Shown: positions 951 to 22,121 of the stretch, piece by piece | Layout: each line of letters begins with the position of its first letter | Position numbering within the stretch: the first letter of the stretch is position 1 | DNA from: Ignavibacteria bacterium | GTDB lineage: Bacteria > Bacteroidota > Ignavibacteria > UBA10030 > F1-140-MAGs086 | Assembly (NCBI GenBank): GCA_016873775.1 | Contig: VGWC01000001.1 | Location: 10,141-74,140 of the forward strand | Length of the DNA stretch: 64,000 nt | Direction: 5' to 3' | Translations under genes and position numbers: made by a program | The notes under the pieces: model-generated | Seen by the model: the letters and a program-made list of their open reading frames with translations, nothing else | Database searches by the model: none | Told to the model about the DNA's origin: nothing

Positions 951-955
951 TAATA

Positions 956-1983: not shown

Positions 1984-1995
1984 GGAGTTAAAAAA

Positions 1996-3108: not shown

Positions 3109-3134
3109 ACTCTTGAAACAGAAATTTTCCAAAA

Positions 3135-3172
3135 GCAAAGGAAGAAAATACGTTTGCTTTTTTTCATTACTG
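3135..3172 (+). terminator. Possible intrinsic terminator after the 9-haem cytochrome gene.
   Basis: 'aagcaaa–13 nt–tttgctt' stem followed by TTTTT. Confidence 0.3.
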
Positions 3173-3390
3173 AAATCAAACGCTTTTTTCTATTGCACGA
3201 ATGAGAATATAAATTCGTAATAATACTTTATCTGTTGAACGCATCTTATATTTCTTGATTATTCAGTGAAGAATTATGAAATTTTACGGTACTTTTTTTG
3301 TTTTTTTTCTTGATGCACACTTTGAACTTGGCATAAAATTTGTTTTGACAATTGAATATCTGATTATTTAAATTATAAACTTCTATACAA

Positions 3391-4803
3391 ATGCGACGTA
3401 CTTCAATTATTCTTTTCATTGTTTTTCTAACAATAACGATTCCATCGTGTAAGAAAGATGATAATAACATAACGCCTCCAATAGATTACGGAAACATTGA
3501 TACGATTAAATACACAAAACATGTGCAGGCGTTGTTCAATGATAAATGCGCTACGTCGGGATGTCATTCTTCGGCGACGAAAAGCGCGGGATTATCACTT
3601 GCATCGTGGAGTGGAGTTGTTCACGGTTCTTCGATTGGCGAAGTAGTAATTCCGTTTCGAGCGGATAAAAGTTTGCTTACGTATTTATTCGATGGAACTT
3701 CATTGAGAAAAAATCATCGAGCAGTAGAAAAGAAATTAACAACAGCAGAAATAAATTTTCTAAAACGTTGGATAAACGAAGGCGCAAGCAACGACGCGAA
3801 CGAAATACCGTTCACTAATTCTACAAACAAACTGTACGTTCCCAATCAAGGCGAAGATAACGTAGCGGTGATTGATTTGGATAGTATGCGCGTTATTCGT
3901 TATGTAAATGTTGGTGAATTGCCGACAAATGAAGGTCCGCATTTTGTAACTGCACGAAGCGATTTTTGGTATGTTTCACTTATAGGAGCCAAACAAGTGT
4001 GGAAATTTGATACGCACAATGATACGCTTGTTGTCGGAAAAGCAAATGTTCCCGGTTCTCCCGCATTGCTTACGCTTACACCCGACGGAAGCAAATTATA
4101 TGTTTCGCAATTTATGACTTCGGCTATCAATAAAGTGTATGTTATCAATACGAGTACTATGACTGTCGTAGATACGTTAACCGTTGGGAAAATGCCGCAT
4201 GGAATACGCATCAATCATTCGGGAACAAGGTTGTATTGCGCCAATATGATGTCGGATAATGTAACCGTTGTTGACGTTGCAACGAATGAAGTGTTGGAAC
4301 ATATTCCGCTTGCGTGGGATGCAAATCCGGTTCAGCCGAATTATTTACCGATTGAAATTGCTATTTCTCCCGATGATAATTTTTTTGCTGTTTCCTGTTC
4401 GAAAGACACCAAGAATGAAGTGCGAATTTTCAACACTTCTGCACACGCGCTTGTGGATTCGTTTCACGTTGGTGTTCAGCCGTGGCATTTACAATATTTG
4501 CGCGATGGAAGTTCTATAGTTGTTACCAATAGAGTTGGAAATTCCGTTTCACAAATTCATATTGCCGCGCGCCATGTGAATACCATACTATCCGCATCCA
4601 ATTTCGATTATCCGCATGGTTGCGTCATTTCGCCGAATGGAGGATATACGATTGTTTCCAATGAAAATGCGTATCATCGTTATCTTCCGCGTTATTTGTC
4701 GGAGTATGTCGGCAACGTATGTATTATAGATAATGCGCTGGCGCAAGTTGTCAAAGTTATTGAAGTCGGGAAAATTCCTACGGGAATTTCGGTGATTGAA
4801 TAA
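3391..4803 (+). CDS. Lipoprotein with an N-terminal PSCyt1-like (planctomycete-type) cytochrome c domain fused to a YVTN-family β-propeller.
   Basis: Signal peptide plus lipobox (TITIPSC). N-terminal domain FNDKCATSGCHSS…SAGLSLASW…VIPFRADKSLL…FLKRWINEGA resembles PSCyt1. It is followed by repeated 'YV.N….V.VID' β-propeller blades (LYVPNQGEDNVAVIDL, LYVSQFMTSAINKVYVIN, LYCANMMSDNVTVVDV, etc.). Confidence 0.65.
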   Translation: MRRTSIILFIVFLTITIPSCKKDDNNITPPIDYGNIDTIKYTKHVQALFNDKCATSGCHSSATKSAGLSLASWSGVVHGSSIGEVVIPFRADKSLLTYLFDGTSLRKNHRAVEKKLTTAEINFLKRWINEGASNDANEIPFTNSTNKLYVPNQGEDNVAVIDLDSMRVIRYVNVGELPTNEGPHFVTARSDFWYVSLIGAKQVWKFDTHNDTLVVGKANVPGSPALLTLTPDGSKLYVSQFMTSAINKVYVINTSTMTVVDTLTVGKMPHGIRINHSGTRLYCANMMSDNVTVVDVATNEVLEHIPLAWDANPVQPNYLPIEIAISPDDNFFAVSCSKDTKNEVRIFNTSAHALVDSFHVGVQPWHLQYLRDGSSIVVTNRVGNSVSQIHIAARHVNTILSASNFDYPHGCVISPNGGYTIVSNENAYHRYLPRYLSEYVGNVCIIDNALAQVVKVIEVGKIPTGISVIE

Positions 4804-4850
4804 ACAATTCTGTTTCGCAGATTTTAAAAAAAATTCAACTATTTGTTTTT

Positions 4851-6155
4851 ATGAAACGTACTATCTTCATCATTTCTGTTGTTATTCTTGCAATTTTTTC
4901 CAGTTGTAGAAAAGACGATAACACACAACAACCGCCGCCGTCCGAATATAAACTCACAGATTTTGAATCCTCGCAATCGTGTTCGACGTGTCATCCACAA
5001 TACTACGAAGAATGGAAAGGTTCGATGCATCGCTATGCAACGAACGACCCGATTTGGATGCTTGCGGCAAATTCACTTCAACAAAGCACGAACGGTAAAT
5101 TGAAAGACTGGTGTTTTCAATGTCATTCACCGATAGCATTTCTTACAAAAACATCGCCAAAAATGATTGATATTTCAAAATTACCGGAAATCGTTCGCGA
5201 AGGAGTGAACTGCGATGTATGTCATACATTGTTACCGCCTCATAAAACCACTGACCAAAATATCTTTTACAACATCAAACCTGGGAAAACAAAATATTCT
5301 ACGCTCAAAAATCCTGTTCCTGCCGGCGCGCACGAAAACGGTTACGACGCATCCCAAGACCGTTCAGAATCGTGTCGTCAATGTCACGATTTGATAGTGA
5401 ATGGTATCCCGTTGGAAATGACATTTACCGAATGGCAAAATAGTCAATGGGCAATGTCGGCGGAATTTGATTGTCAAGATTGTCATATGAAAACCTATAC
5501 AGGTCGCGCAGCAACCGGAGGACCTATTCGTGAAAATTTACATCGTCACGATTTCATCGGCGTAGATGTTGCAATCACCGATTTTCCGAATAAGCCGCAA
5601 CAACGTGCCGCTATTGATTCGCTTTTAAAAAATGCTGCGACGCTTACTGCAAATATTCCTTCTTCTGCCAATCTCAATGATTCCATAAACATCGGAGTTA
5701 CTATTATCAATGACAAAACGGGACATAATTTGCCGACGTCGGTTTTTTTCAACAGACAAATGTGGATAGAAGTAACAGTTTCCAAAGGAAGCGACACGGT
5801 ATATCGTTCCGGTCATTTCGATGCAAACGGCGATTTGATGGATAACAACAGTGCAATTGCTCCAAATGCAGATAAAGATTTGGTCATTTTCAACGGTTCG
5901 CTGTATAAAGATGGACACCCGTCGAATGCATTCGAACTTGATTCTGTTGTGAATAAAACCATTCCTCCGTTTGCTTGGCATACGGCAAATTACAAGTTCA
6001 AAGTTCTCTCTTCCGGAATATGGAATGTAAAAACACGCTTGCTCTTTCGTCCGTTTGGACCGTATTTATTTCGGAGTTTAGGCGCAAGTCAATATGTGTC
6101 CGAACTTCCTGTGTTCGAGATGAACTCGTACGAAACGAATATCAACGTTCAATAA
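4851..6155 (+). CDS. Pentahaem cytochrome c lipoprotein.
   Basis: Signal peptide plus lipobox (IFSSC). Five CXXCH motifs: CSTCH, CFQCH, CDVCH, CRQCH, CQDCH. Confidence 0.8.
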   Translation: MKRTIFIISVVILAIFSSCRKDDNTQQPPPSEYKLTDFESSQSCSTCHPQYYEEWKGSMHRYATNDPIWMLAANSLQQSTNGKLKDWCFQCHSPIAFLTKTSPKMIDISKLPEIVREGVNCDVCHTLLPPHKTTDQNIFYNIKPGKTKYSTLKNPVPAGAHENGYDASQDRSESCRQCHDLIVNGIPLEMTFTEWQNSQWAMSAEFDCQDCHMKTYTGRAATGGPIRENLHRHDFIGVDVAITDFPNKPQQRAAIDSLLKNAATLTANIPSSANLNDSINIGVTIINDKTGHNLPTSVFFNRQMWIEVTVSKGSDTVYRSGHFDANGDLMDNNSAIAPNADKDLVIFNGSLYKDGHPSNAFELDSVVNKTIPPFAWHTANYKFKVLSSGIWNVKTRLLFRPFGPYLFRSLGASQYVSELPVFEMNSYETNINVQ

Positions 6156-6293
6156 CCATACTGTTGCAGAGTATAAGGGTTTCAATTTTGAATTGAAGAT
6201 GCGACACGATTTCTTTTTTTCTTTCAAAATGGGAAAAAAGAAAATGGCATAAATATTGTAATAAGATAATTTGAATAATAATTCGAGGTTTTT

Positions 6294-6746
6294 ATGTCAA
6301 CAATATTTAGTAAATCTTGTGAATATGCACTGCAATCAATGCTGTATATTGCACGCAAAGCAAAAAATCAGCCGATTTTACTCCGCGATATTTCCACTGA
6401 ACTCAACATTCCTTATCATTTTCTCAGTAAAGTATTGCAAAATCTTGTGCGCGACGGTTTAGTCGTTTCGCATAGAGGAATCAACGGCGGATTTTTCTTA
6501 GGGCGCTCTGCGGAAGAAATAACGCTGTTCGATATTATTTGCGCTATTGAAGGAAAAACATTTTTCGATAATTGCATTCTCGGTTTTCCCAAATGCAGCG
6601 ACGAGTATCCATGTCCTGCTCATTTTCAATGGAAGGATGCAAAGTCCATTCTTCTCGAGGTCTTTCAGAGAAAAACCGTTGCAGAATTATCCATAGCACT
6701 TGACCCGAAACTGGAACTTGTTCACAAACTTTCAGGTATGAAGTAG
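6294..6746 (+). CDS. Rrf2-family transcriptional regulator (IscR/NsrR-like) with a 3-Cys cluster.
   Basis: N-terminal wHTH 'SCEYALQSMLYIARK…PILLRDISTELNIPYHFLSKVLQNLVRDGLVVSHRGINGGFFL' is typical Rrf2. Cys cluster CILGFPKCSDEYPC. Confidence 0.85.
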   Translation: MSTIFSKSCEYALQSMLYIARKAKNQPILLRDISTELNIPYHFLSKVLQNLVRDGLVVSHRGINGGFFLGRSAEEITLFDIICAIEGKTFFDNCILGFPKCSDEYPCPAHFQWKDAKSILLEVFQRKTVAELSIALDPKLELVHKLSGMK

Positions 6747-6973
6747 GGGAATTTTCTATTTCGCAATTATAAATAATAGTAAAAAGCAAGTCGGATACTT
6801 CTCATTTCTGATACAAGTATCCGATTTTTGCTTTCAATTGTGAAACCATAAATAAGATGCGTGATTTATTCACATCAAATAAGGAACTCATTTTCTTTTT
6901 TTACATATTTATCATTGGCACATTTTTTGTTTTATGAAATGCACGATGCTACGAAATAATAAAACCCGAAAGA

Positions 6974-8362
6974 ATGGAACAACCTATTACACAAATAGAT
7001 ATTGATTTTCTAAAGAAGTACGACAAAGCAGGGCCGCGCTATACAAGTTATCCTCCTGCTCCTATCTTTACTGTGGAATACAACGAGAAACTTTTTGAAA
7101 TTGACATTATAAAAAATAATGATGAAAATTACGCCCCGTTGTCACTGTATATTCATATTCCTTTTTGCGATACGTTATGTTATTTTTGCGGTTGCACAAC
7201 AGTAATAACAAACAATCGCCAACAGATAACACGCTATATATCAGCATTGAAAAAAGAAATAGAAAACATCGTTCCATATCTCAACAAGCGACGGCGCGTA
7301 GTACAACTCCACTTCGGCGGAGGAACTCCATCGTACCTTGAACCGAAAGAAATCGAAGATGTGTTTTCATTCATCGGTGAAAAATTCCGCTTTGCGCCGA
7401 ACGCGGAAATTAGTGTAGAAATTGACCCGCGAGGATTATCGTACGAACATTTACAGGCGTTTCGCAACGGAGGAGTAAATCGCATCAGTTTAGGAGTGCA
7501 GGATTTTGACGAAAACGTACAACGCACCGTCAACAGAATACAACCAGAAGAAATAACAACGCAAACGATTGCATGGGCGCATCAACTTGGAATAGACAGC
7601 ATCAACATAGATTTGATATACGGATTACCGTTGCAAACAGAGGAACAATTTTTAAGCACATTGAAAAAAATAATTCGCCACGCGCCGAATAGAATTGCCG
7701 TGTTCAATTTTGCGTATGTTCCTTGGATGAAACCACATCAAAAACTCATTCACGCAGAAGATTTACCTTCGGCGGAAACAAAACTTGCGTTGCTGAAAAC
7801 TACGATAGAACAACTAACGGGCGCTGGATACGAATATGTTGGAATGGATCATTTTGCAAAACCCGAAGATGAACTTGCGCGCGCGCGAAACGAACGAACA
7901 CTTCACAGAAATTTTCAGGGATATTCGACTAACGCGTATGCTGATTTGTATGCATTTGGAATGTCTTCCATTTCTCATTTTGGAACTACGTATGCGCAAA
8001 ATTGTAAGACATTGCAAGAATACTTCGATGCAATAGAACGGGGAAAATTTCCTATCAGTGTCGGTTACCGAATGACGCGCGACGACATTGTTCGTAAGTA
8101 CGCTATTATGCGATTAATGTGCGATTTAGTTCTGGATAAACAAGAAATGGAAGAACGATTTGGAATTTCGTTCAACGAATATTTTGCAGAATCGCTTGAA
8201 ATGCTGGAAGAATTTACGGAATCTGAACTTGTGAAAATCAACGAAGAAGAAATTCGCATAATCGGAATGGGACGTTTTATTCTCCGTAATATTGCAATGG
8301 TTTTTGATGCATACTTAAAAAAAGAAACAGAGGGAAAGAAACTCTATTCGCGAACTATTTAA
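6974..8362 (+). CDS. hemN: Oxygen-independent coproporphyrinogen III oxidase-like radical SAM enzyme (HemN family).
   Basis: N-terminal 'KYDKAGPRYTSYPPAP', radical-SAM CxxxCxxC (CDTLCYFC) and the expected length of 462 aa. Matches the established HemN architecture. Confidence 0.88.
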   Translation: MEQPITQIDIDFLKKYDKAGPRYTSYPPAPIFTVEYNEKLFEIDIIKNNDENYAPLSLYIHIPFCDTLCYFCGCTTVITNNRQQITRYISALKKEIENIVPYLNKRRRVVQLHFGGGTPSYLEPKEIEDVFSFIGEKFRFAPNAEISVEIDPRGLSYEHLQAFRNGGVNRISLGVQDFDENVQRTVNRIQPEEITTQTIAWAHQLGIDSINIDLIYGLPLQTEEQFLSTLKKIIRHAPNRIAVFNFAYVPWMKPHQKLIHAEDLPSAETKLALLKTTIEQLTGAGYEYVGMDHFAKPEDELARARNERTLHRNFQGYSTNAYADLYAFGMSSISHFGTTYAQNCKTLQEYFDAIERGKFPISVGYRMTRDDIVRKYAIMRLMCDLVLDKQEMEERFGISFNEYFAESLEMLEEFTESELVKINEEEIRIIGMGRFILRNIAMVFDAYLKKETEGKKLYSRTI

Positions 8363-8495
8363 AATGATGAACCAATGTTGAAGAATTCACAAAAAGCAAA
8401 ATATGTTGTTTTAAAAAAATACAAGCATAACGTATTTTGTCAACAAGATGTTCACTTGGTACACTTTTTGAAGATGCCATTATCATTGAAGATGT

Positions 8496-9041
8496 ATGAA
8501 CACGGCATTTTCAGAGATACAACGAAGCGGAAATTATTATAGCAGTGTGATGAGTTTTCATAGCGATCCGATTGAAACATTAGTCAAAGAACACGATGAC
8601 GCTTTGAAGCAACTGAATATTTTAAACAATGCGGCAATGTCCATTAAAGTGAACGGTTTTTCTGCCGAAGCGTTTGAAAAAATTGCCAAAACGATACGGT
8701 ACATCGGAACTGAAATGCGCAAACACGACGAGAAGGAAGAACGATTTCTTCTTCCATTGTTGGAAAAACATGTAAGCGGACCTTCCTCAGCGATGCGCAA
8801 CGAACACAGGGAGTTATGGGCGGCATTTTCGCAATTGTTGCAATTAGTTCACAATGCCGAAGAAGGAAAAATTACCGGTCGTTCCATTTCCGATTTAGTG
8901 CGTTCATCAATTTTTATCGTCGAACTCTCTACTACGCATATCGCAAAAGAGAATAATGTTCTTTTTCCAATGGTGAAGCAAGTTCTTTCCCAAGAAGAAT
9001 ATGAACAACTGAAACGAGATTTTGCAACAATAGAACAATAG
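8496..9041 (+). CDS. Hemerythrin-like (HHE cation-binding) domain protein.
   Basis: Repeated H/E-containing helices (LVKEHDDA, MRKHDEKEE, MRNEHREL, THIAKE) consistent with a hemerythrin-like di-iron domain. The true start may be an internal Met (MSFHSD…). Confidence 0.5.
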   Translation: MNTAFSEIQRSGNYYSSVMSFHSDPIETLVKEHDDALKQLNILNNAAMSIKVNGFSAEAFEKIAKTIRYIGTEMRKHDEKEERFLLPLLEKHVSGPSSAMRNEHRELWAAFSQLLQLVHNAEEGKITGRSISDLVRSSIFIVELSTTHIAKENNVLFPMVKQVLSQEEYEQLKRDFATIEQ

Positions 9042-9114
9042 AATGCTTTGTTAAGAGTAATGAACGGCATGAGTCAATACGCGGAGGCGCTCCGTGTAAC
9101 AGTTTGCGTGCAAT

Positions 9115-9363
9115 GTGTTTTTCGAAAGTCGAAACTTACGATGTGAAAGAGAAATCGAATGTCCGATGTTTTGCTACTTACCGGAAATGGTAAAAATTGT
9201 CAACGTTATGGAATGTGATGCATTAAGTGAGTATCTTGATGTATTGCGTCCGATTATCTGTGAAAATTGTAATGAAAGTACCGAAGGTTTTTGTTTTAAG
9301 CGCAGTGAAGATGAATGTCCTTTCGAAATGTATTTCTCGTTATTGAAGTTGTTACATTCATAA
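9115..9363 (+). CDS. Small Cys-rich hypothetical protein. Start uncertain; may be a non-coding ORF.
   Basis: ORF with 10 Cys in about 80 aa (CEREIEC, CENC, CFKRSEDEC). No recognisable family. Confidence 0.25.
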   Translation: MFFESRNLRCEREIECPMFCYLPEMVKIVNVMECDALSEYLDVLRPIICENCNESTEGFCFKRSEDECPFEMYFSLLKLLHS

Positions 9364-9470
9364 ATTTTCCGTAAATCTTATCGAGTTTTTTTTAAGTTAA
9401 GGGAATATATTTTTATTACCGAACCAATTGAAAATCACTTACATCAAATTTCATAGATAATCATACGCCG

Positions 9471-9791
9471 ATGAGCAACATTCCAAAACAATACAAAAAA
9501 TTTTCTAAAGATTTTCCTGAGGTAATCCACGCATACGAAGCATTAGGAAAAGCAGTTCATTCTGCAGGTCCGTTAAATGAGAAAACACGTGCGCTTATCA
9601 AACTCGCTATTTCCGTTGGCGGGAAATTGGAAGGCGCAGTTCACTCGCATACGCGCAAAGCGCTCAATGCCGGCGCATCTCCCGATGAAATTCGACACGT
9701 TGCTTTGCTTGCGCTTCCTACCATTGGTTTACCTTCGATGATGGCGGCAATGAGTTGGGTAAACGATATTCTCGACGAACGAAAAAAATAA
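9471..9791 (+). CDS. Carboxymuconolactone decarboxylase (CMD/AhpD-like) family protein.
   Basis: CMD-family signature 'ALIKLAISVGGKLEGAVHSHTRKALNAGASPDEIRHVALLA' and the expected size of about 106 aa. Confidence 0.7.
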   Translation: MSNIPKQYKKFSKDFPEVIHAYEALGKAVHSAGPLNEKTRALIKLAISVGGKLEGAVHSHTRKALNAGASPDEIRHVALLALPTIGLPSMMAAMSWVNDILDERKK

Positions 9792-10777
9792 TGCCGCTGG
9801 TAGATTTATTCGGAAGAAATCACGAGTATTTACGCGTCTCTGTTACTGACCGTTGCAATCTTCATTGCCGATATTGTGTTCCTTCCGAAGGAATAAAAGT
9901 TCAGCGACGCGAAGAAATTCTTTCCTTTGAAGAAATAGAATTGCTTGCGCGCATTTTTGTTACATTGGGAATAAAAAAAATACGGATTACCGGAGGCGAA
10001 CCGTTATTGCGCGATGGCTTAGAAACATTATGCGCTTCTCTCTCTTCCATTGTCGGACTTCGTTCGCTTGCACTTACAACGAACGGCGTTTTGCTTACAG
10101 AAAAAAGTTCTGCACTGAAACACAGCGGAATTCAACAACTCAATATTTCACTTGATACACTTCAGCAACGGCGGTTTGAACACGTTACGAAACGAGCATC
10201 GTTCAACGAAGTTCTGCGAGGTATTGAATCAGCAATTCTTGCCGGATTTGAAGAAGTAAAAATCAATACTGTCGTAATGCGCAATTTCAACGATGATGAA
10301 TTACTGGATTTTGTAGCGTTTGCGAAATCGCTTTCGCTCAATGTTCGCTTTATCGAATTTATGCCTTTTTTAGGAAATGGTTGGAACCACGGAAGATTTG
10401 TTTCATTTCTCGAAATGAAACAAATCATTGAAACACAATTTACCTTAGTTCCAAAATGGAACGAACAAATTCTTCCAGGACCGGCAAAAGAATTTTCGGT
10501 GGATAATAGCAATGCGACGATTGGATTTATTACAACCATGAGCGACCATTTTTGCAGCGATTGTAATCGCTTGCGAATTTCTGCAATGGGAATCATTCGA
10601 AACTGTTTATTTGCCCAAAGCGGTATTGATGTAAAAACTCCATTGCGCAATGGTGCGACAATGAATGAACTGGAAATGCTGATTCGTTCTTCCGTGCTTT
10701 CTAAATGGGAAAAACATCCCGAAGAACATGAACTCGTGCAACTTCAGCAACAATCTATGATAGGAATTGGCGGATAA
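9791..10777 (+). CDS. moaA: GTP 3',8-cyclase MoaA (molybdenum cofactor biosynthesis, radical SAM).
   Basis: 'YLRVSVTDRCNLHCRYCVP' radical-SAM motif and the C-terminal Cys motif CSDCNRLRISAMG. The ATG at 9791 overlaps the stop of the upstream gene; the track ORF begins earlier at 9755. Confidence 0.9.
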   Translation: MPLVDLFGRNHEYLRVSVTDRCNLHCRYCVPSEGIKVQRREEILSFEEIELLARIFVTLGIKKIRITGGEPLLRDGLETLCASLSSIVGLRSLALTTNGVLLTEKSSALKHSGIQQLNISLDTLQQRRFEHVTKRASFNEVLRGIESAILAGFEEVKINTVVMRNFNDDELLDFVAFAKSLSLNVRFIEFMPFLGNGWNHGRFVSFLEMKQIIETQFTLVPKWNEQILPGPAKEFSVDNSNATIGFITTMSDHFCSDCNRLRISAMGIIRNCLFAQSGIDVKTPLRNGATMNELEMLIRSSVLSKWEKHPEEHELVQLQQQSMIGIGG

Positions 10778-11387
10778 TATTTTTTCGATGCAACAGCGAA
10801 CAGACATAACAGGGATTATACTTGCCGGCGGAAAAAGTTTGCGAATGGGTAGTGACAAAGCGCTTCTTTCCTTAGGAAATAGAACGTTATTGCAATGTGT
10901 TGCAGATGCGATGAAACAGGTTTTTCACAATGTGATAATTATTTCTGACAATGGTGAGTGTTATACGGAATTACAATTGCCCGTATTTCCCGATGTGTAT
11001 AAATGTTGCGGACCGTTAGGGGGAATTCATTCGGCGTTTGCTCATTCGTCGTCGGAAAATATTTTTGTTGTATCGTGCGATTTGCCATACATTACTCCCG
11101 AAGTAATTCAATACATCACGAATATTCATTCAAACGGTGATGTCATCATTGTATCACAAGGAAGAATTATTCAACCACTTTGCGGATTATATCAACGAAC
11201 TTGTGTTGCTACGCTCGAACAATGTCTTTTCAAGAGCGAATTTTCTGTGCTGAGATTCTTGCGAAAACTCAATACGTATGTGCTTTCGCTTAATACTCTA
11301 TTCCCTTCTGTAGCAGAACATACGCTAATGAATATCAACACTCCGATAGAATACCGCAGGAGTGTAAATTATTGGTATGGGAATTAA
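10767..11387 (+). CDS. mobA: Molybdenum cofactor guanylyltransferase MobA.
   Basis: 'ITGIILAGGKSLRMGSDKALL' nucleotidyltransferase motif, the expected size, and position directly downstream of moaA. Confidence 0.8.
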   Translation: MADNIFSMQQRTDITGIILAGGKSLRMGSDKALLSLGNRTLLQCVADAMKQVFHNVIIISDNGECYTELQLPVFPDVYKCCGPLGGIHSAFAHSSSENIFVVSCDLPYITPEVIQYITNIHSNGDVIIVSQGRIIQPLCGLYQRTCVATLEQCLFKSEFSVLRFLRKLNTYVLSLNTLFPSVAEHTLMNINTPIEYRRSVNYWYGN

Positions 11388-11467
11388 TAAAAATTTTTTT
11401 TTCATCAATTCGCGAGTATTTTTCTCTCGCTTCTCTTTTACATTTTCAACAACAAGAATTAAATAAT

Positions 11468-11941
11468 ATGTTTCAATTAAGCCGCAGCGGTGAATATGCA
11501 ATTCAAACAATGATAAATTTAGTATCGCAGAAAGATGAATTATCAACAATCGCTCAAATCGTCCAGGAAGAAAGAATTCCGGAGTCATTTGTTCGGAAAA
11601 TCATTCAGCAATTGATTCGCGGAAAACTTCTGAAATCGAAACGTGGAATTCGTGGAGGAATTGCATTGGCAAAACCCCCCTCTTCAATAACCGTATACGA
11701 TATTATTGAAATTACTGAAGGTCCTATCTATTTTAACAAATGCATCATCGGACCACGCGAATGTTCCATAACGTCTTGGTGTTCCGTGCATCCTGTTTGG
11801 CAAGAAGCGCAAAATAAATTTGTAGAAGTTCTGCAAAAAAAAACGATTGAAGATTTATCAAACGAGCGAAAGGTATTGTTTCGGGATTTTACAACGAAAG
11901 TAAATATGAATAAGGAAAAAAGCGACGCGCTTCAAGAATAA
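11468..11941 (+). CDS. Rrf2-family transcriptional regulator, second paralog.
   Basis: 'MFQLSRSGEYAIQTMINL…GIRGGIALAKPP…ITVYDIIEITEG' wHTH plus Cys cluster CIIGPRECSITSWC. The internal ATG at 11468 gives the canonical Rrf2 N-terminus; the track ORF starts at 11372. Confidence 0.8.
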   Translation: MFQLSRSGEYAIQTMINLVSQKDELSTIAQIVQEERIPESFVRKIIQQLIRGKLLKSKRGIRGGIALAKPPSSITVYDIIEITEGPIYFNKCIIGPRECSITSWCSVHPVWQEAQNKFVEVLQKKTIEDLSNERKVLFRDFTTKVNMNKEKSDALQE

Positions 11942-12099
11942 CCTTCAAGGTTTTTTTGATTTTAAAGGCGGTGTTTCACATGAGTTGATGGCTTTCTTAC
12001 AAGACCGTAAACGGTCTTGCTGGACGAAAAAAGAATCATCAATGATTCTTTGGTTTTATTCCGATTTATCGGATTTTTTTGTTTCAGCATAACCATGAA

Positions 12100-12722
12100 A
12101 TGCAATCTGAAAGATTTTTTCCTCGACAAGAAACAACGCGAAAGCATCCTGGACATCATTCGAAAAGAAAAGAAAATAGAAAATACAAAACTGGAACTGA
12201 TACGATGCGACGGGAACAATATTCACGTTATCGAAAACGAAGTCGGCATATCAATGAGCAAGGAGAATTAATTCAAACGCACGGATTCATTATTGACGTA
12301 ACTGGGAAAAAGACACTGGAAAAACAATTCCGACAAGCGCAAAAATTAGAGAGCGTTGGAACGATAGCGGGAGGAATTGCGTACGATTTGAATAATATAC
12401 TTACCATTATTTTTAGGACATTCATCATTACTGAAACGAACAAAAGGAAATCCCGAAAAAATTTATCAAAAGGATGGAGAAGGAGCCGTTTCGATTTATT
12501 GCAAAAATGCTCATACCATTTTGCTTGTGTTGAGCGATTTAGGATTACCAAAACTTGGAGGATGGGAAGCATTCTTGAAAATGAGAGATTTCAATCCGAA
12601 AATTAAAACAATTTTTGCAAGCGGTTACATCGCGCCCATAAGAAATCTGAGTATTTCAAATCAGGCGTAAATGATTTTGTTCAAAAGTCATATTCATCAA
12701 ACGAAATTTTGAAAAAAATTTG
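12100..12722 (+). pseudogene. Decayed hybrid sensor histidine kinase / response regulator remnant, spread over three or more reading frames.
   Basis: Reading frame A carries a PAS-end-like '[19 protein letters not shown]'. Reading frame B carries the HisKA H-box '[32 protein letters not shown]', in which the phospho-accepting His is replaced by Tyr. Reading frames C and D carry receiver-domain pieces '[37 protein letters not shown]' and 'SGVNDFVQKSYSSNEILKKI'. No HATPase_c domain is present. Confidence 0.55.
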
Positions 12723-12811
12723 TGAAGCCATAGAAATTCCCGAAAGTAAAAAATTTTTTTGAAAACAAAATTTTGTATTTTGAGAGAAATTTTATCACTA
12801 ATTGAAATTCT

Positions 12812-13243
12812 ATGAGTCTTCTCTTTAGCCGCCAATGTGAATATGCATTACAAGCCATTCTTTTTCTTGCTACAAAACCGCCAAAAGAAATGGTACCAGC
12901 AAAAGAATTAGCAGAAAAATTGAATATCCCGTATCATTTTTTGGCAAAAATATTTCAAGATTTATCCAGAAAAGGAATATTGGTTTCCTTAAAAGGACCA
13001 ACCGGTGGGTTCACTCTTGGAAAAGCCGCCAAAGAAATTACGCTTTTTCATATTATTGAGGCAATTGATGGAGCAAATTTCATGGAAAATTGCGTTTTAG
13101 GATTTTCTCAATGTGGGGGAGAGAATCCTTGTGCTGTGCATAATAAGTGGGGAGATTTGCGCGATGAAATACATAGGATGCTCACATCAAAAAATATTAT
13201 GCAGTTGTCGAAAGAAATGAAGAAACCTGTATTTCAAGAATAA
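12812..13243 (+). CDS. Rrf2-family transcriptional regulator, third paralog. Closest to the 6294 copy.
   Basis: 'RQCEYALQAILFLATK…ELAEKLNIPYHFLAKIFQDLSRKGILVSLKGPTGGFTL' plus Cys cluster CVLGFSQCGGENPC. Confidence 0.85.
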   Translation: MSLLFSRQCEYALQAILFLATKPPKEMVPAKELAEKLNIPYHFLAKIFQDLSRKGILVSLKGPTGGFTLGKAAKEITLFHIIEAIDGANFMENCVLGFSQCGGENPCAVHNKWGDLRDEIHRMLTSKNIMQLSKEMKKPVFQE

Positions 13244-13394
13244 AGTGGGAGTTTCTTAGTAATAGGATAAAATACTCTTCAATGGTATAGTTTTTGCATA
13301 TAGTTACTCGTGAAGAATTTCATCATACAAAATGTGATGGATTCAACTCAAATTTCTCAAAGCAAACAGATATTTATTTTCACGAATAACAAAT

Positions 13395-14636
13395 ATGCGT
13401 CAAAGCGATAATGTAGGGGAAAATAATGATGCATTTTCAAAAATATTTCCAACGATATTTACAAAAGAAAATGTATCTCGAAATGTTGCCCAAACTGTAA
13501 TTTCATCGAATCAAAAACGAGGCGTGCGGAAAATTCCCCGAGAACTTCTCCGCAAGAAAATTCAATTATCACAAGAGCAGCATTTTGCAAAACGATGTTT
13601 TGTAAAACTTAGTCAAGATTCTCAATTCCTTCGTTCAACAATTCAATTTGCATTTGCGCTTTTATGCGTGTGGATAGGAATTGAATTTTATTTCTTTATG
13701 CAATGGGGGATGTCAAACGGAATGGAAGGTTCGTCATATCGCCCTCCAGGAGTTGAAGGATTTCTTCCCATCAGCGCATTGATGAGTTTGAAATATTGGT
13801 TTGCCACTGGTAGCATCAACGAAATACACCCCGCATCCATTTTTATTCTCCTTGCAATTCTCGCAGTAAGTTTATTCCTGAAAAAAGCATTTTGCAGTTG
13901 GCTTTGTCCCGTTGGAACATTGAGCGAATCGCTGTGGAGAATCGGTGAGACAATATTCGGGAGAAATGCGCGAGTAACCCGATGGCTCGATTATCCATTG
14001 CGTTCTCTAAAGTATGTATTATTGTTGTTTTTCGTGTATTCGATTTGGCAAATGGATGTTCAAAGTTTAGCCGATTTTATTTATAGTCCATATAACAAAA
14101 TGGCGGACGTGAAAATGTATTTGTTCTTTGCCAACATTACATCGTTTGCATTATGGACAATTGTGGTGCTGATGTTTTTTTCGTTGTTCATAAAAAATTT
14201 TTGGTGCCGCTATTTATGCCCGTACGGCGCATTGTTAGGAATGTTGAGTTGGTTAAGTCCCGTAAAAATTTTCCGCAGCAAATCTTCGTGTATTGATTGT
14301 GAGTTATGCACAAAAGTTTGTCCCGCATCAATAAACGTTCACAAAGGAAATACGGTGTGGAGCGACGAATGTACAAGTTGTCTCGAATGTGTTGAAGTGT
14401 GTCCCGTAAAAAATACGTTGGAAGTGAAAACACATTTTACGAACAACCGTGTTTCGAACGTTCTTTTCGGCGTACTTGTGGTTGGAATATTTGCAGCAAT
14501 GACATTCGCCGCAATGCTCGCGAACCAATGGCAAAACAAGATTTCCCAGGAAGAATATTTACAGCGATTTCCCAATATCGAATCGTCATTGTATCAACAC
14601 AATAGAGGAGAAGCGCCGAAAGAAATCAACAAGTAA
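13395..14636 (+). CDS. NapH/MauN/NosR-family membrane polyferredoxin (two CX3CP + two 4Fe-4S ferredoxin motifs).
   Basis: CSWLCPVG and CRYLCPYG membrane-loop motifs, followed by CIDCELCTKVCP and CTSCLECVEVCP ferredoxin motifs, with several TM helices. There is an extra N-terminal extension of about 90 aa, so the start is uncertain. Confidence 0.7.
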   Translation: MRQSDNVGENNDAFSKIFPTIFTKENVSRNVAQTVISSNQKRGVRKIPRELLRKKIQLSQEQHFAKRCFVKLSQDSQFLRSTIQFAFALLCVWIGIEFYFFMQWGMSNGMEGSSYRPPGVEGFLPISALMSLKYWFATGSINEIHPASIFILLAILAVSLFLKKAFCSWLCPVGTLSESLWRIGETIFGRNARVTRWLDYPLRSLKYVLLLFFVYSIWQMDVQSLADFIYSPYNKMADVKMYLFFANITSFALWTIVVLMFFSLFIKNFWCRYLCPYGALLGMLSWLSPVKIFRSKSSCIDCELCTKVCPASINVHKGNTVWSDECTSCLECVEVCPVKNTLEVKTHFTNNRVSNVLFGVLVVGIFAAMTFAAMLANQWQNKISQEEYLQRFPNIESSLYQHNRGEAPKEINK

Positions 14637-14647
14637 CAACAGCGAAA

Positions 14648-15451
14648 ATGACAGAAACGAAAACCATTGAAGATTTTTATGCGCAACTTGCTTCCGATTA
14701 CAATACATTCACAGAACCAAAAAAACGATGGTCGCGCGAGATAGACATTTTTCGTTCACTCGTCCAACGCTATAATATTACATCAGCCATTGATGCAGGA
14801 TGCGGAACGGGATTTCATTCGTTGGTACTTTCGCAACTTGGAGTGAATGTTATCGCCGCAGATGTTTCTCAAGAAATGCTGCGCATTGCAGAAAACCACG
14901 CGAAGCAATACAAAGTCTCGATAACGTTTATCAAATCTTCATTTCAACAACTTTCGCAAACAATATCCACTCGTGTTGATGCAGTATGTTGCTTAGGAAA
15001 TTCCTTCCCCCATTGTCTAACGGAAAAAGAACAACAACATGCGTTGCAGAATTTTATTTCTCTCTTAAAACCGAATGGCGTACTCATCCTTCACTTATTG
15101 AATTATGACCGCATTCTTGCAAAAAATGAGCGCGTGCAAAACGTGAAAAAATTGAACGGAAAAATATTTGTGCGTTTCTACGACTTTCTTTCTTCCACTG
15201 TACGATTCAATGTTTTAATACTAAAAAAAAACGCAGGCAAAATAATTTCTTCGCTTTCTTCTGTTGAATTATATCCTATCAAAAAAAAAGAAATTCATTC
15301 CTTGCTTTCCGATAGTTCAACTTCCTCCGGCGAAAAATTTTCCGAAATACAATTCTACGGCGGACTTTCACTTGAAAATTATTCCGAATCCGCATCGAAG
15401 GATTTAGTTGTTATTGCCCAAAAACAGCGCGCCATCGAAAACGTTTTATAA
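14648..15451 (+). CDS. Class I SAM-dependent methyltransferase.
   Basis: Motif I '[12 protein letters not shown]' and post-I '[11 protein letters not shown]'. Confidence 0.8.
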
Positions 15452-16537
15452 CGCAATTCTTCGGTACTGAAAATACGCCGCACACGCGCCTTCACTGGAA
15501 ACCATCGGCGCACCAAGCGGATGTTCCGGCGTGCATAATGTTCCGAATACTGAACATTCCTTCGGTTTTTTAATACCTTGCAAAACTAATCCTGCGATGC
15601 AATGTTCACTTTCTTGCACAACAATATTTTCGAGTTCAAATATTTTTTCTGCGTCGAACATTTCATATTCTTTTTTCAATCCTAATCCACTGGAAGGAAT
15701 TTCACCAATGCCGCGCCACTTGCGATGAACAATTTCAAAAACTTCGCGAACTAATTCCTGCGCCGGAATATTTCCTGTTCTTCTCACAGAACGCGCATAT
15801 TGATTTTCCACTTCCGCGCGGCGTTCTTCCAATTGCTTAATGCACAAATAAATTCCTTGAAGAATATCAAGCGGTTCAAATCCCGTTACAACAATTGGAA
15901 CGTGATATTTTTTTGCAAGTGGAATATATTCTTCAAATCCCATCACCGTGCATACGTGTCCCGCCGCAAGAAATCCCTGAACCGTATTCTGCGACGATGA
16001 TAAAATTGCTTCCATCGCAGGAGGAACGAGCACGTGCGAAACCAGCATTGAAAAGTTAGCAACATTCTTCTTTTTCGCGTCAAACACTGCCATCGCATTT
16101 GCGGGAGCGGTTGTTTCAAACCCTACAGCAAAAAAAACTATGTACTGTGCAGGATTTTCCATTGCAATTTTTACAGCATCCATTGGCGAATACACAATGC
16201 GTACATCACCGCCATTCGCTTTCACGGAAAATAAATCCATTTTTTTTCCGGGAACACGCAGCATATCGCCGAAGGAACAAAAGATGACATCGTTTCGCGA
16301 TGCGATGGTGATTGCTTTTTCTATCAATTCAACGGGAGTAACGCATACGGGACAACCGGGACCATGAACGAGAGAAATTTTTTTCGGAAGCAATTCATCA
16401 ATACCGAATTTCACAATCGCGTGTGTTTGACCACCGCAAATTTCCATCAGCGACCATGCGCGCGTTGTTATGTCAAAAATTTTTTGAGAAAATTGTTTCG
16501 CGCATTTTGCGTCGCGGTATTCGTCAATGTATTTCAT
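15446..16537 (-). CDS. hypD: [NiFe]-hydrogenase maturation factor HypD.
   Basis: 'MKYIDEYRD…[18 protein letters not shown]…[13 protein letters not shown]' are conserved HypD motifs. Confidence 0.9.
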
Positions 16538-16788
16538 ATATCTCGTTCATTCAGTTCTTTCAACTCATCTATTTCTTTCAAATATTCGAACACGCGGTTT
16601 GCTTCGTCTTTATCTACTTTGCTGATAGCAAATCCTACGTGAACAATCACAAAATCATCAACCGTTGCATCAGGAACATACGAAAGATTTACTTCTTTTA
16701 TTATTCCGCTGAAATTTACTTTTCCTGTTCGTTGCAACGGTTCGTCGTTCGTGATGCTTTCAATTTTTCCTGGAATTGCGAGACACAT
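16534..16788 (-). CDS. hypC: Hydrogenase maturation factor HypC.
   Basis: N-terminal MCLAIPGKI, size 84 aa, and a start that overlaps the hypD stop. Confidence 0.85.
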
Positions 16789-16808
16789 TTTCGATTTCAG
16801 ATTTCAGA

Positions 16809-19744: not shown

Positions 19745-20103
19745 ACGTTTTTTTTCGTTTGTTCAAACATTTCGATTTCTACAATGTTCATTTCCGTCCC
19801 CGAGAGAATTTCACAATTCGTGCTTGCGCAGAAAGAGCAAACATTCATCCCGAATTCATTGGAAGATTTTTTTTTACACACATTGCAATACACTTCAAAC
19901 GGAATTTTTTGAATGACGAGGTTCGCGTTGTTCAATGGTGTATTATTCACGATGACGGAAAAAGAAAACGCTAATGATTCTGCGGCAACTCCCGAACATT
20001 CGCCAACAACAGTTTTCACATTCGTAACATTATGCAAATCGTTTTCGTGAACGTGTTGATGTATGATTTCTACGATATTCTGTGCAAGCGAAAGTTCGTG
20101 CAT
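19741..20103 (-). CDS. hypA: Hydrogenase nickel-insertion protein HypA.
   Basis: 'MHELSLAQNIVEI' N-terminus with a CxxC…CxxC zinc site (CNVCKKK…CSFCAS). The ATG at 20103 is the likely start; the track ORF begins at 20145. Confidence 0.8.
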   Translation of the reverse strand: MHELSLAQNIVEIIHQHVHENDLHNVTNVKTVVGECSGVAAESLAFSFSVIVNNTPLNNANLVIQKIPFEVYCNVCKKKSSNEFGMNVCSFCASTNCEILSGTEMNIVEIEMFEQTKKNV

Positions 20104-20197
20104 ACGTTGTAATGAACAAGAGTTTCTCTCAAAATTTGCGCTCAATAAAAAAATCTTTTAGCAAAGTAAAAAACGTTTCAATGGTCTCTGTAAAAAA

Positions 20198-22031: not shown

Positions 22032-22121
22032 AATTGCATTGTGATAATTTGTTCTTTAAAAAAATGGAGTTCATGTTTTAAAATGATAAACTCCACAAAA
22101 AAATAAACGTTGCGTCAGAAT

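Follow-up and report, generated by a model that had tools for sequence, protein, structure and literature searches.

Do three Rrf2-family regulator genes lying within 7 kb of one another in an Ignavibacteria genome form a designed, layered switch, in which each regulator heads its own redox-cofactor module? We addressed this question, raised by an original prediction made from the DNA alone, in the whole 64,000-nucleotide stretch analyzed (the window), in the corresponding loci of a sister species, and in related loci of other genomes. The three open reading frames begin on the forward strand where the original prediction had placed them:

6294–6746, + strand: R1, Rrf2 regulator, 150 aa (PF02082 103 bits, TIGR00738 110 bits)
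11468–11941, + strand: R2, divergent Rrf2 regulator, 157 aa (PF02082 116 bits)
12812–13243, + strand: R3, Rrf2 regulator, 143 aa (PF02082 110 bits)

All three match PF02082 in a Pfam profile search (E 1e-29 to 1e-33) and score above the TIGR00738 cut-off. Each retains the winged helix, a C-x6-C-x5-C-x2-H motif and Glu10; in R1 the ligand set is C94-x6-C101-x5-C107-x2-H110 with Glu10 and Cys9, and Cys94, Cys101, Cys107, His110, Glu10, and Trp113 (R1 numbering) are invariant across the three. The cysteine triad predicted for every copy is present, although its spacing is C-x6-C-x5-C throughout rather than C-x5–6-C-x5-C, and it holds up in a wider alignment, the same residues being invariant in 90 related sequences. 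From the alignment offsets, Glu10 aligns with NsrR Asp8 and RsrR Glu8, for which ligand roles have been described (PMC5411485, PMC11138216). Because the ligand residues are invariant, it is plausible that these proteins are Fe-S cluster regulators, as proposed; cluster binding is inferred, and neither the type of cluster nor the signal can be read from sequence. None of the three reached the NCBIfam cut-offs for IscR, NsrR, RirA, or CymR. The best specific model was IscR for R1 (71.6 bits) and for R3 (78.3 bits), both below the cut-off of 207.55, and RirA for R2 (86.8 bits versus a cut-off of 193); the best PDB match of R1 was also IscR.

R1 and R3 are closer to each other (43% identity) than to R2 (34% between R1 and R2), as had been noticed, and a neighbor-joining tree groups the R1 and R3 clades as sisters and leaves R2 on a long branch outside them. 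Homologs number 971 for R3, 9 for R1, and 3 for R2. All three genes are under purifying selection relative to the sister species (dN/dS 0.06 for R1, 0.24 for R2, and 0.10 for R3), which is strong for R1 and R3. We conclude from these sequence comparisons that R1, R2, and R3 are three old, separate lineages and not the outcome of a recent local triplication.

R1 and R2 flank the same string of genes in both species, and in the sister R3 follows R2 at a distance of about 16 kb. In the window genome a 7.8-kb block carrying R3 has moved next to R2. Homology to the sister's R3 locus starts at 12769, which sets the breakpoint at 12768/12769, 44 nt upstream of R3, where it removed the apparent native –10 box. 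Two pseudogenes, of a kinase and of hycI, lie beside R3.

12091–12745, + strand: hybrid sensor kinase, pseudogene remnant (two fragments of sister-species locus L004, 15662–18982, are all that blastn recovers)
12765–12776, no strand assigned: 12-nt palindrome ACAAAATTTTGT, straddling the breakpoint 12768/12769

Judged from this alignment, the rearrangement truncated a kinase gene, hycI, and the promoter region of R3 itself. Misassembly was considered and rejected, in that independent metagenome contigs (L015) span the junction between R2 and R3 and connect the kinase remnant with the flanking DNA on either side. The claim of three copies within 7 kb is thus true of the window genome and fails beyond this lineage; the close spacing is a by-product of rearrangement, not a design unit. 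Since separate lineages were brought close in this way, the trio near haem, molybdenum cofactor (Moco), and electron-transfer genes is an ordinary set of regulators rather than a designed three-layer switch. The perfect palindrome offered as a candidate operator does exist, at 12765–12776 and not at 12762–12773. We rejected it as an operator: it is a by-product of the junction, its left arm has no conserved counterpart in the sister species, and perfect 12-nt palindromes are no commoner in the window than chance predicts (22 versus 28.9 ± 5.1 in Markov simulations).

R2 does not head a module. It lies at the 3′ end of a CMD–moaA–mobA string and is followed only by the dead sensor-kinase gene, whose sister-species counterpart is intact (1106 aa, dCache-3xPAS-HisKA-HATPase-REC). 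Its sole ortholog, in the sister species, is 79% identical, and its next-best relatives reach 42 to 48%. This genus-restricted protein keeps the Cys/His/Glu set, but its recognition helix differs (IPESFVRKIIQQL). A role for R2 as a Moco regulator was rejected on the grounds that it trails moaA–mobA, that its orthologs are confined to the genus, and that no target could be identified for it. The idea that different paralogs are tied to different modules accordingly survives for R3 (with the NapH-like and methyltransferase genes) and for R1 (with molybdoenzyme and moaA genes elsewhere), and not for R2.

In the window, R1 precedes hemN, a hemerythrin gene, and CMD–moaA–mobA.

6788–6832, + strand: intrinsic terminator after R1, hairpin AAGTCGGATACTT / AAGTATCCGATTT plus T-run (inverted repeat I6)
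6974–8362, + strand: hemN, oxygen-independent coproporphyrinogen III oxidase (TIGR00538 601 bits, cut-off 325)
8496–9041, + strand: single-domain hemerythrin (HHE), weakly RIC/YtfE/DnrN-like (PF01814 68 bits)
9471–9791, + strand: CMD/AhpD-like protein (PF02627 66 bits)
9791–10777, + strand: moaA, GTP 3′,8-cyclase (TIGR02666 356 bits, cut-off 284)
10788–11387, + strand: mobA-like molybdenum cofactor guanylyltransferase (PF12804 122 bits; L001 gene call)

R1 heads this stretch only loosely, given that it has its own terminator, conserved in the sister species, and that hemN has a separate promoter. The hemerythrin falls below the cut-offs of both the YtfE (42 bits) and the DnrN (36 bits) models. 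CMD had been grouped with hemN; it belongs with the Moco genes because it is translationally coupled to moaA, its stop codon overlapping the moaA start at 9791. Elsewhere, R1-clade genes precede operons of a type-II DMSO-reductase-family molybdoenzyme and moaA, and NosZ adjoins an R1-clade gene: at locus L110, the Rrf2 gene heads a NosZ-containing string.

For R3, the claim that it heads a module (a NapH-like gene and a methyltransferase) stands.

13315–13344, + strand: conserved inverted repeat GAATTTCATCA-N9-TGATGGATTC in the leader of the NapH-like gene (from the sequence and its alignment with the sister)
13395–14636, + strand: NapH/MauN-like membrane polyferredoxin, 413 aa (Fer4_5 x2 + Fer4)
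14648–15451, + strand: class I SAM-dependent methyltransferase, 267 aa (Methyltransf_25)

R3 represents in this genome a large orthogroup widespread in Ignavibacteriota/Bacteroidota, with identities mostly of 62 to 70% among the 120 matches listed of 971. We counted gene context at 79 genome loci with R3 orthologs. The NapH-like gene lies directly 3′ of the regulator in 61 of the 79, a methyltransferase is present in 54, and in seven the operon is prolonged by qNor (quinol NO reductase) and YwiC; at L039 a hemerythrin lies inside it. The polyferredoxin of the window scores 92 bits against TIGR02163 (cut-off 213), and the closest solved relative of the methyltransferase is glycine/sarcosine N-methyltransferase (79 bits). 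Conservation between the two species reaches 87% across the spacer that separates R3 from the NapH-like gene, and the inverted repeat in this spacer is perfect in the sister (AATTCATCA/TGATGAATT). A nitrogen-oxide theme is plausible, because qNor occurs at seven loci, NosZ lies by an R1-clade gene, and the hemerythrin and mobA have a parallel in Neisseria, where a RIC/DnrN-type hemerythrin and mobA are under NsrR regulation (PMC3032703).

Outside this genus, the R3 family has a recognizable operator, a palindrome of roughly 20 bp (TTAAGAC-N6-GTCTGAA) defined from 57 genomes. In 57/79 loci it is found some 25 nt ahead of the R3-ortholog start codon, overlapping a TTGACA-17-TAnnTT promoter, and most of these 57 have a second copy, at about +455, before the NapH-like gene; hemN genes beside R3 orthologs mostly lack it. 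R1-clade genes carry the same type of operator, and the R1 and R3 clades share a recognition helix, which in the window proteins is unchanged from that of their operator-bearing relatives. The shared palindromic operator expected upstream of the modules was searched for and not found: the 64-kb window holds no significant match (best PWM score 10.9, the level of shuffled sequence), and the canonical site is absent upstream of R1 and R3 in both the window genome and the sister species. What we found is one degenerate copy at the canonical relative position, about +450.

13262–13283, + strand: family operator in degenerate form (ATAGGATAAAATACTCTTCAAT), just past the R3 stop codon (PWM 10.1)

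This copy scores 10.1 in the window and 13.1 in the sister species, compared with 16 to 32 at sites in other genomes, and we read the canonical operator as degenerate in this genus. Because it is missing at R1 and R3 and only a weak remnant is left at the NapH-like gene, regulatory links suggested by other genomes may here have grown weaker, been rewired, or disappeared.

The cis-element that the transcription units do share is a –24/–12 promoter of sigma-54 type, whose dependence on sigma-54 is putative.

3329–3343, + strand: sigma-54-type –24/–12 element TGGCATAAAATTTGT, 48 nt before the beta-propeller/cytochrome operon
6245–6259, + strand: sigma-54-type element TGGCATAAATATTGT, 35 nt before R1
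6916–6930, + strand: sigma-54-type element TGGCACATTTTTTGT, 44 nt before hemN
8457–8471, + strand: tentative near-match TGGTACACTTTTTGA, upstream of the hemerythrin gene
13283–13297, + strand: sigma-54-type element TGGTATAGTTTTTGC, preceding the NapH-like gene and directly adjoining the operator remnant

The pattern TGGYAY-N5-TTGY, defined after the first match had been seen, has exactly four matches in 64 kb versus 0.95 expected, all preceding genes of the cluster (the cytochrome operon, R1, hemN, and the NapH-like gene) and all conserved in the sister species (the first at L004 7029). The near-match is a perfectly conserved block within an otherwise diverged spacer. Just after the R1 element lies an operator-like left half-site, TAAGAT, at 6261–6266, and the same arrangement of element and half-site occurs at the R1-clade locus L110. 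Such elements also precede hemN at L041, L046, L094, and L034, an operator followed by TGGCAC recurs at L022, L033, L087, L088, L089, L096, and L099, and sigma-54-type elements recur elsewhere next to NtrC-type regulator genes; the window itself has no rpoN or activator gene. Sigma-54-type promoters had not figured in the original prediction.

The reading we favor, at a probability of roughly 0.55, is that R1, R2, and R3 are three functional, separately transcribed repressors from three lineages, likely with Fe-S clusters, of which R3 and R1 are tied to NapH-like and molybdenum modules. Each protein would most likely hold its cluster on the invariant C-x6-C-x5-C loop, with His110 (as in IscR) or Glu10/Cys9 of the partner subunit (as in NsrR/RsrR) as the fourth ligand. 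In most genomes, R3 orthologs are predicted to bind the palindrome over their own –10 region and again before the NapH-like/methyltransferase operon. With its cluster intact, the dimer would sit on or beside the promoter, which in this genome would be of sigma-54 type; damage to the cluster, or a change in its redox state, by NO, nitrite-derived species, or oxidants would release the dimer and de-repress genes that serve anaerobic respiration linked to nitrogen oxides and the supply of cofactors. R2, confined to the genus, would be evolving quickly; its recognition helix differs, and no target can be assigned to it.

It is unlikely that the three are instead IscR-type sensors of Fe-S homeostasis, in which a [2Fe-2S] cluster on Cys3His reports Fe-S supply, not NO, and tunes Fe-S-rich, cofactor-demanding enzymes such as HemN, MoaA, and the polyferredoxin. 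The C-x2-H after the third cysteine matches IscR Cys104/His107 (PMC5411485), IscR is the top model for R1 and R3 and the top structural match for R1, and the products of the target genes are Fe-S or radical-SAM enzymes. Type-1 sites of IscR have a core, GACT-N5-AGTC, similar to the operator core seen here, GAC(T)-N4-(A)GTC, in which the half-sites lie one base closer. E. coli IscR, the [2Fe-2S] regulator of Fe-S cluster assembly, further shares the winged-helix fold, the three-Cys loop, the His at +3, and control of its own gene by a palindromic operator that overlaps the promoter (predicted for R3/R1 relatives). Against this, R1 and R3 (72–78 bits) score about a third of what the equivalog cut-off requires, the first cysteine spacing is x6 and not x5, an invariant acidic residue occupies the NsrR Asp8 position where IscR has Arg8 in the alignment, no isc/suf genes occur in the window or among the conserved neighbors of the 79 loci, and the neighbors are qNor, NosZ, and Mo-enzyme genes.

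We consider it quite doubtful that R1 and R3 are largely orphaned in this genus, their operators having decayed after sigma-54 promoter replacement and rearrangement, so that a sigma-54 activator mainly controls the nearby genes and the Rrf2 proteins act elsewhere or weakly. The lack of any significant operator in 64 kb, the mere half-site remnants (6261–6266 and 13262–13283), the truncation of the R3 upstream region at –44, the sigma-54-type elements before R1, hemN, and the NapH-like gene, and the decay of the adjacent kinase and hycI genes would all fit; strong purifying selection, the unchanged recognition helix, the conserved spacer, and a remnant exactly at the canonical position, abutting a –24 element like functional-looking sites in seven genomes, do not. 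Very unlikely, in our view, is the layered unit of the original prediction, with functional clustering, different signals, and a shared operator logic. Identical ligand sets inside 7 kb, the gene string kept between R1 and R2, and paired Rrf2 genes near respiration clusters elsewhere in the phylum (L054, L080, L093, L110) speak for it, but it is weakened by the synteny data: R3 is near R2 through the rearrangement, no module lies 3′ of R2, the palindrome spans a junction in a window with no excess of such palindromes, and no operator common to the modules was found.

Among other known systems, NsrR, the NO-sensing [4Fe-4S] repressor of S. coelicolor, E. coli, and Neisseria, shares the three-Cys loop, Glu10 is an invariant carboxylate where NsrR has its inter-subunit ligand Asp8, and the neighboring or co-operonic NO reductase, hemerythrin/DnrN-type protein, and mobA recall its regulons. 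It differs in that NF008240 scores are 42–59 bits (cut-off 182), no gATGyAT-N5-ATrCATc NsrR box is present, no hmp lies nearby, Glu replaces Asp, and His110 and Cys9 are additionally conserved here. RirA/RisR, [4Fe-4S] repressors sensing iron or Fe-S, resemble R2 in its best model, the three-Cys loop, and an undefined fourth ligand; unlike them, R2 stays below the RirA cut-off, has no iron-uptake genes nearby, and has x6/x5 spacing, which in RirA is x7/x5. Finally, Rrf2 genes adjoin clade II nos clusters in Bacteroidetes/Ignavibacteria (Melioribacter roseus Mros1101 and Ushuaia Bay metagenome scaffolds; PMC3534657, PMC6264515). These are annotations, with no described operator, ligand set, or signal, and are likened to our genes by context: they belong to the same phylum-level group and lie beside genes for nitrogen-oxide respiration and 4Fe-4S electron transfer.

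The region from 6.2 to 15.5 kb of the window is one co-directional gene run on the plus strand, in which three Rrf2 regulator genes (R1, R2, and R3) are arranged as follows:

6294–6746, plus strand, R1 (Rrf2), first gene of the string
6974–8362, plus strand, hemN (TIGR00538, 601 bits)
8496–9041, plus strand, single-domain hemerythrin
9471–9791, plus strand, CMD/AhpD-like gene, its stop overlapping the moaA start
9791–10777, plus strand, moaA (TIGR02666, 356 bits)
10788–11387, plus strand, mobA
11468–11941, plus strand, R2 (Rrf2)
R2–R3 interval, about 870 bp without an intact gene
12812–13243, plus strand, R3 (Rrf2)
13395–14636, plus strand, NapH/MauN-like membrane polyferredoxin
14648–15451, plus strand, class I SAM methyltransferase

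Multihaem cytochromes and a beta-propeller protein (916–6155) lie upstream of R1, and hypDCFBA lies downstream of the string on the minus strand. Solved structures gave too little to assign a function to either the NapH-like protein (generic ferredoxin motifs only) or the methyltransferase (a distant match to glycine/sarcosine N-methyltransferase). The long hemerythrin–CMD spacer contains an 82-aa Cys-rich ORF (9115–9363), which is probably not a conserved gene because the sister species has about 100 nt of deletions in this spacer and no gene called there. A GC-rich conserved hairpin, GCGGAGGCGCTCCG (~9082–9095), follows the hemerythrin stop codon.

All three regulators are bona fide Rrf2 proteins, as originally described. 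They score above the cut-offs of PF02082 (103, 116, and 110 bits for R1, R2, and R3; cut-off 30) and TIGR00738 (110, 109, and 115 bits; cut-off 73.3), and a C-x6-C-x5-C-x2-H motif and Glu10 are invariant in them and in all 90 aligned relatives. Cys9 is found in 88 of the 90 aligned sequences; R2 has Gly at that position. R1, R2, and R3 thus have the three conserved loop Cys, past the wing and dimerisation part, that mark the Fe–S-binding subgroup, and are predicted to bind a cluster. Each falls below the cut-offs of the models for IscR (TIGR02010, cut-off 207.55; 71.6, 66.9, and 78.3 bits), NsrR (NF008240, cut-off 182; 42.0, 59.4, and 45.3 bits), RirA (NF008886, cut-off 193; 58.0, 86.8, and 49.1 bits), and CymR (NF047409, cut-off 195; 54, 66, and 48 bits), and no isc or suf genes were found in the window or among the recurrent neighbors of 79 R3 orthologs. 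IscR uses Cys92, Cys98, Cys104, and His107 as ligands; the putative ligands in R1–R3 are three Cys and an invariant His at +3 (His110), which is placed like IscR His107, although the first Cys spacing (x6) differs from that of IscR. By alignment offset to the solved structures (an offset of 2), Glu10 falls on Asp8 of NsrR and Glu8 of RsrR, which are inter-subunit cluster ligands (Asp8 in ScNsrR) (PMC5411485, PMC11138216). With Glu10 on the NsrR/RsrR ligand position and an IscR-like His110, the cluster type is not callable from sequence.

The three genes represent three lineages and are not a local triplication. R1 and R3 are 43% identical, R2 and R1 34%, and R1, R3, and their relatives have IPYHFL(A/S/G)K(I/V)(L/F)Q as recognition helix, where R2 reads IPESFVRKIIQQ. 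A word-indexed search of 5.8 billion proteins returned 971 homologs for R3, nine for R1, and three for R2; the 120 listed of the 971 R3 homologs are mostly 62 to 70% identical and are labeled Bacteroidota, Ignavibacteria, or KSB1. One R2 ortholog, in the sister species (78%), emerged from a full HMMER scan against 1.84 billion cluster representatives; the next best relatives have 42 to 48% identity, and a metagenome scan agrees. In a neighbor-joining tree with four reference sequences and no bootstrap, the R1 clade is sister to a large R3 clade, with R2 as a long-branched outlier to both, and all three are separate from the IscR and NsrR of E. coli, the IscR of T. potens, and the CymR of B. 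subtilis. dN/dS values relative to the sister species (0.06 for R1, 0.24 for R2, and 0.10 for R3) indicate that all three are maintained by selection.

The original prediction saw a layered regulatory design in the grouping of these genes within 7 kb. Comparison with the sister species (~82% DNA identity; 91, 79, and 83% protein identity for R1, R2, and R3) argues against this, because R3 there lies about 16 kb from R2. The sister keeps the R1-to-R2 stretch intact and, next to it, a complete gene for a hybrid sensor kinase of 1106 aa (dCache, three PAS, HisKA, HATPase, and REC domains). Its R3, together with the adjoining NapH-like, methyltransferase, and hyp genes, sits ~16 kb further on, behind a ProDH–DHDPS–OTCase–AA kinase block (L017, the sister locus, 5757–9892). 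In the window, two internal deletions have removed ~2.7 kb of the kinase gene, leaving two fragments (12091–12470 and 12470–12745), so that the former neighbor of R2 is dead. Homology to the sister R3 block spans 12769 to 20547: it sets in 44 nt before the R3 start codon, within the sister's extended −10 box (TGGTATAAT), and ends inside hycI, of which a 117-aa ORF (20198–20551, minus strand, after hypA) is the truncated remnant of the hydrogenase maturation protease gene. In the sister, hycI is followed by genes for both the large and the small subunit of a NiFe hydrogenase; the window lacks them there, which leaves the hyp maturation genes without an adjacent hydrogenase. Misassembly would also bring R2 and R3 together, but the junction is covered, in full or in part, by independent contigs from other samples, so the rearrangement is real. 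Nor does a simple deletion between R2 and R3 account for the arrangement: the ProDH–DHDPS–OTCase–AA kinase genes that separate them in the sister are retained in inverted orientation ~28 kb away (41492–45863, minus strand), which implies a multi-step rearrangement. We conclude that several rearrangements separate the two species and that the three genes came to lie together by accident, through rearrangement. An ECH/EthD/DUF4175 block (21186–26661) is likewise inverted relative to the sister. Downstream of R2, 180 bp that have no equivalent in the sister contain two features, at 12001–12020 and 12060–12080: a perfect hairpin, CAAGACCG-TAAA-CGGTCTTG, at which Logan contigs break, and a hairpin, TCCGATTTATCGGA, that resembles a terminator and leads into a T-run.

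Conserved regulatory context was found for the wider R3 clade. Among 79 genome loci with R3 orthologs, the NapH-like gene directly follows the regulator in 61 (many of the remaining contigs end early) and the methyltransferase is present in 54. A quinol-type NO reductase (qNor; NorB cytochrome-c-like domain plus COX1) extends the same operon in seven loci, usually with a YwiC-like gene next, and in one locus (L039) a hemerythrin gene lies between the R3-type regulator and the NapH-like gene. Alignment of the upstream regions reveals a clear TTGACA-17-TAnnTT promoter, with a palindrome (consensus TTAAGACAAAATAGTCTGAAAT, core TyAGAy-N6-rTCyGA) over −10 to +1 in 57 of the 79; in most loci a second operator copy lies just past the regulator stop, before the NapH-like gene. 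A canonical example is TTAAGACAAAAGAGTCTGAAAT in L050. As read from sequence, this two-operator arrangement is the classical one for a repressor that acts both on its own gene and on the operon next to it. We defined the R3-type orthogroup by more than ~55% identity, a NapH-like gene directly downstream, and TTAAGAC-N6-GTCTGAA before both genes. R3 itself shares 54 to 68% identity and the gene order with this orthogroup; its upstream operator copy is absent and its downstream copy is degenerate. hemN lies immediately 5′ of R3 orthologs in seven loci; because the operator is mostly absent before hemN, as before hemerythrin and CMD genes, in other genomes, this adjacency does not prove co-regulation. 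A subclade of R3-like genes has no operator (L054, L080, L085, L093, L025, L037, and L040). These genes end sigma-54-driven ferredoxin/2-oxoacid:ferredoxin oxidoreductase operons and adjoin genes for histidine kinases and NtrC-type regulators. A second, operator-bearing Rrf2 copy lies ~6 kb downstream in three of the loci, so paired Rrf2 paralogs recur in the phylum; L085 has just an operator-like site at that position.

Distant R1 homologs (53–61% identity) bear the same operator type (TTTGGACAAAAAGGTCTGATTA in L007, with similar sites in L006, L058, L109, and L110). In three cases (L006, L109, and L110) they precede an operon for a type-II DMSO-reductase-family molybdoenzyme, consisting of a 1134 to 1150-aa Mo subunit, a Fer4_11 subunit, a cytochrome c/EB_dh subunit, and a NarJ-like chaperone; in L110 moaA is its first gene, and a further Rrf2 gene there points in the opposite direction, toward a Rieske/cytochrome b–cytochrome c–NosZ string. 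Thus, the conserved tie to Moco genes belongs to the R1 clade and not to R2, for which it had been proposed from the position of R2 after moaA–mobA. The broader proposal that each paralog serves a different module is supported in part by this comparative context, for the R3 clade (NapH-like protein and methyltransferase) and the R1 clade (Moco), but not for R2 as a Moco regulator. It is plausible that R2 has its own promoter, as a candidate read by eye (TTTACA-17-TAAATA) lies past the hairpin at the mobA end.

A 12-nt palindrome, ACAAAATTTTGT (12765–12776), had been put forward as a candidate for a shared operator. Perfect 12-nt palindromes are at chance level in the window (22 observed, 28.9 ± 5.1 in Markov simulations), and the first four bases of this one lie outside the sister-shared block, where the sister reads GTATAATTTTGT. 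Given this chance-level count, an unconserved left arm, and a position across the breakpoint, we discarded it as an operator; it is a by-product of the junction. A scan of the 64-kb window and the sister loci with the family operator PWM, on which true sites score 16 to 32, gave no significant site (window maximum 10.9, the level of shuffled sequence), and the core AGAY-N6-RTCY matched twice against eight expected. The best local candidates are putative remnants at canonical positions: 13262–13283 (ATAGGATAAAATACTCTTCAAT), just past the R3 stop, which scores 10.1 (13.1 in the sister) and retains the AGA...TCT center, and a TAAGAT left half-site (6261–6266) past the R1 promoter. The NsrR box gATGyAT-N5-ATrCATc had 13 matches at three or fewer mismatches against 9.8 expected, all 13 listed having three mismatches, and the search counts as negative. 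Rfam, including the Moco riboswitch, gave no hit at gathering thresholds across the whole window, and at E ≤1 over 6000–15600 (including the long hemerythrin–CMD spacer) only one sub-threshold sRNA match; generic sigma-70 promoter and terminator scans gave counts not above shuffles. The NapH-like leader contains a conserved inverted repeat, GAATTTCATCA-N9-TGATGGATTC (13315–13344; perfect AATTCATCA/TGATGAATT in the sister), which bears no relation to the family operator or the NsrR box and could be the site of a second regulator or an RNA hairpin.

The pattern TGGYAY-N5-TTGY, the form of a sigma-54 −24/−12 promoter, has exactly four matches in the window, all on the plus strand and each 35 to 100 nt upstream of a cluster gene (0.95 expected; two of 100 shuffles reach four; the pattern was picked after the first match was seen):

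3329–3343, plus strand, sigma-54-type element before the beta-propeller/cytochrome operon
6245–6259, plus strand, sigma-54-type element before R1
6916–6930, plus strand, sigma-54-type element before hemN
13283–13297, plus strand, sigma-54-type element before the NapH-like gene

The three with TTGT and the NapH-like one are all conserved in the sister, and a near-match before the hemerythrin gene (8457–8471) is perfectly conserved too. The same element occurs before hemN in I. album-like loci and before 2-oxoacid:ferredoxin oxidoreductase operons that adjoin genes for NtrC-type sigma-54 activators, which supports a genuine RpoN promoter type in the phylum. In seven loci (L022, L033, L087, L088, L089, L096, and L099) such an element directly adjoins the second R3-type operator, just as one adjoins the remnant in the window. 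Because the pattern is post hoc and the window contains no rpoN or activator gene, sigma-54 dependence is something we infer.

The best-supported reading is that R1, R2, and R3 would be three Fe–S-type Rrf2 repressors of separate ancestry. Across many genomes, the R3 clade would regulate itself and the adjacent NapH-like/methyltransferase operon (with qNor where present), and the R1 clade itself and a Mo-enzyme/Moco operon. The gene company (NO reductase, NosZ, RIC-type hemerythrin, hemN, and mobA) points, by association only, to a nitrogen-oxide or redox signal. NsrR is NO-responsive, and R1–R3 may be linked to NO by context, through qNor in the operon (seven loci) and hemerythrin and mobA nearby. 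In Neisseria, dnrN and mobA are NsrR-regulated (PMC3032703), and earlier work has remarked on Rrf2 genes next to clade II nos clusters in the same superphylum (PMC3534657, PMC6264515). Since the operators are degenerate in this genus and the R3 upstream region is cut, regulation at these loci may be weakened or altered here.

Tentatively, at a probability of about 0.35, we propose that R3/R1-type proteins form an Rrf2 subfamily of Ignavibacteriota/Bacteroidota that is analogous in function to NsrR, of separate descent, with its own operator, unusual ligands, and a conserved regulon, and that acts in some genomes as a repressor of sigma-54 promoters. Its ligands would be three Cys, an IscR-like His, and an NsrR-like inter-subunit carboxylate/Cys9; its regulon would be the NapH-like polyferredoxin–methyltransferase pair, co-operonic with qNor in some species; and in a subset of genomes including this one the repressor would be set directly against the sigma-54 −24 element. 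A literature search found no characterized Rrf2/NapH or NsrR/Bacteroidetes/qNor system, only annotation-level remarks. R1, R2, and R3 are new members of a known regulator family, and Rrf2 regulators next to redox genes are common; taken by itself, the window changes little. What is uncharacterized and modestly interesting is the wider group of R3/R1-type proteins, together with its operator and regulon. The usable gain is a well-defined operator and conserved regulon (NapH-like polyferredoxin, methyltransferase, sometimes qNor) in many uncultured Ignavibacteriota/Bacteroidota, together with a sister clade tied to molybdoenzyme/Moco operons. Such bacteria take part in the turnover of nitrogen oxides in sediments and lakes, and to our knowledge their regulation has hardly been described. 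If the NO link is true, the operator and sigma-54 promoters would be handles for predicting genes responsive to NO or N2O-cycle intermediates in metagenomes.

Of the neighboring genes, the beta-propeller protein has Lactonase/YncE/cytochrome d1-like matches and an N-terminal C-x4-CH haem-type motif, and is partnered with a cytochrome c554-like multihaem protein (3391–4803 and 4851–6155). The same pair occurs in L022 (1762–4652), ~1.3 kb upstream of the R3 ortholog with a radical-SAM gene between. Elsewhere in the window, two very large SdrD_B/CarboxypepD_reg repeat proteins (26803–35301, 2832 aa, and 59975–63997, at least 1340 aa) both have Por_Secre_tail (T9SS) sorting domains, and their repeat units are also found in a 1319-aa protein of the sister locus.
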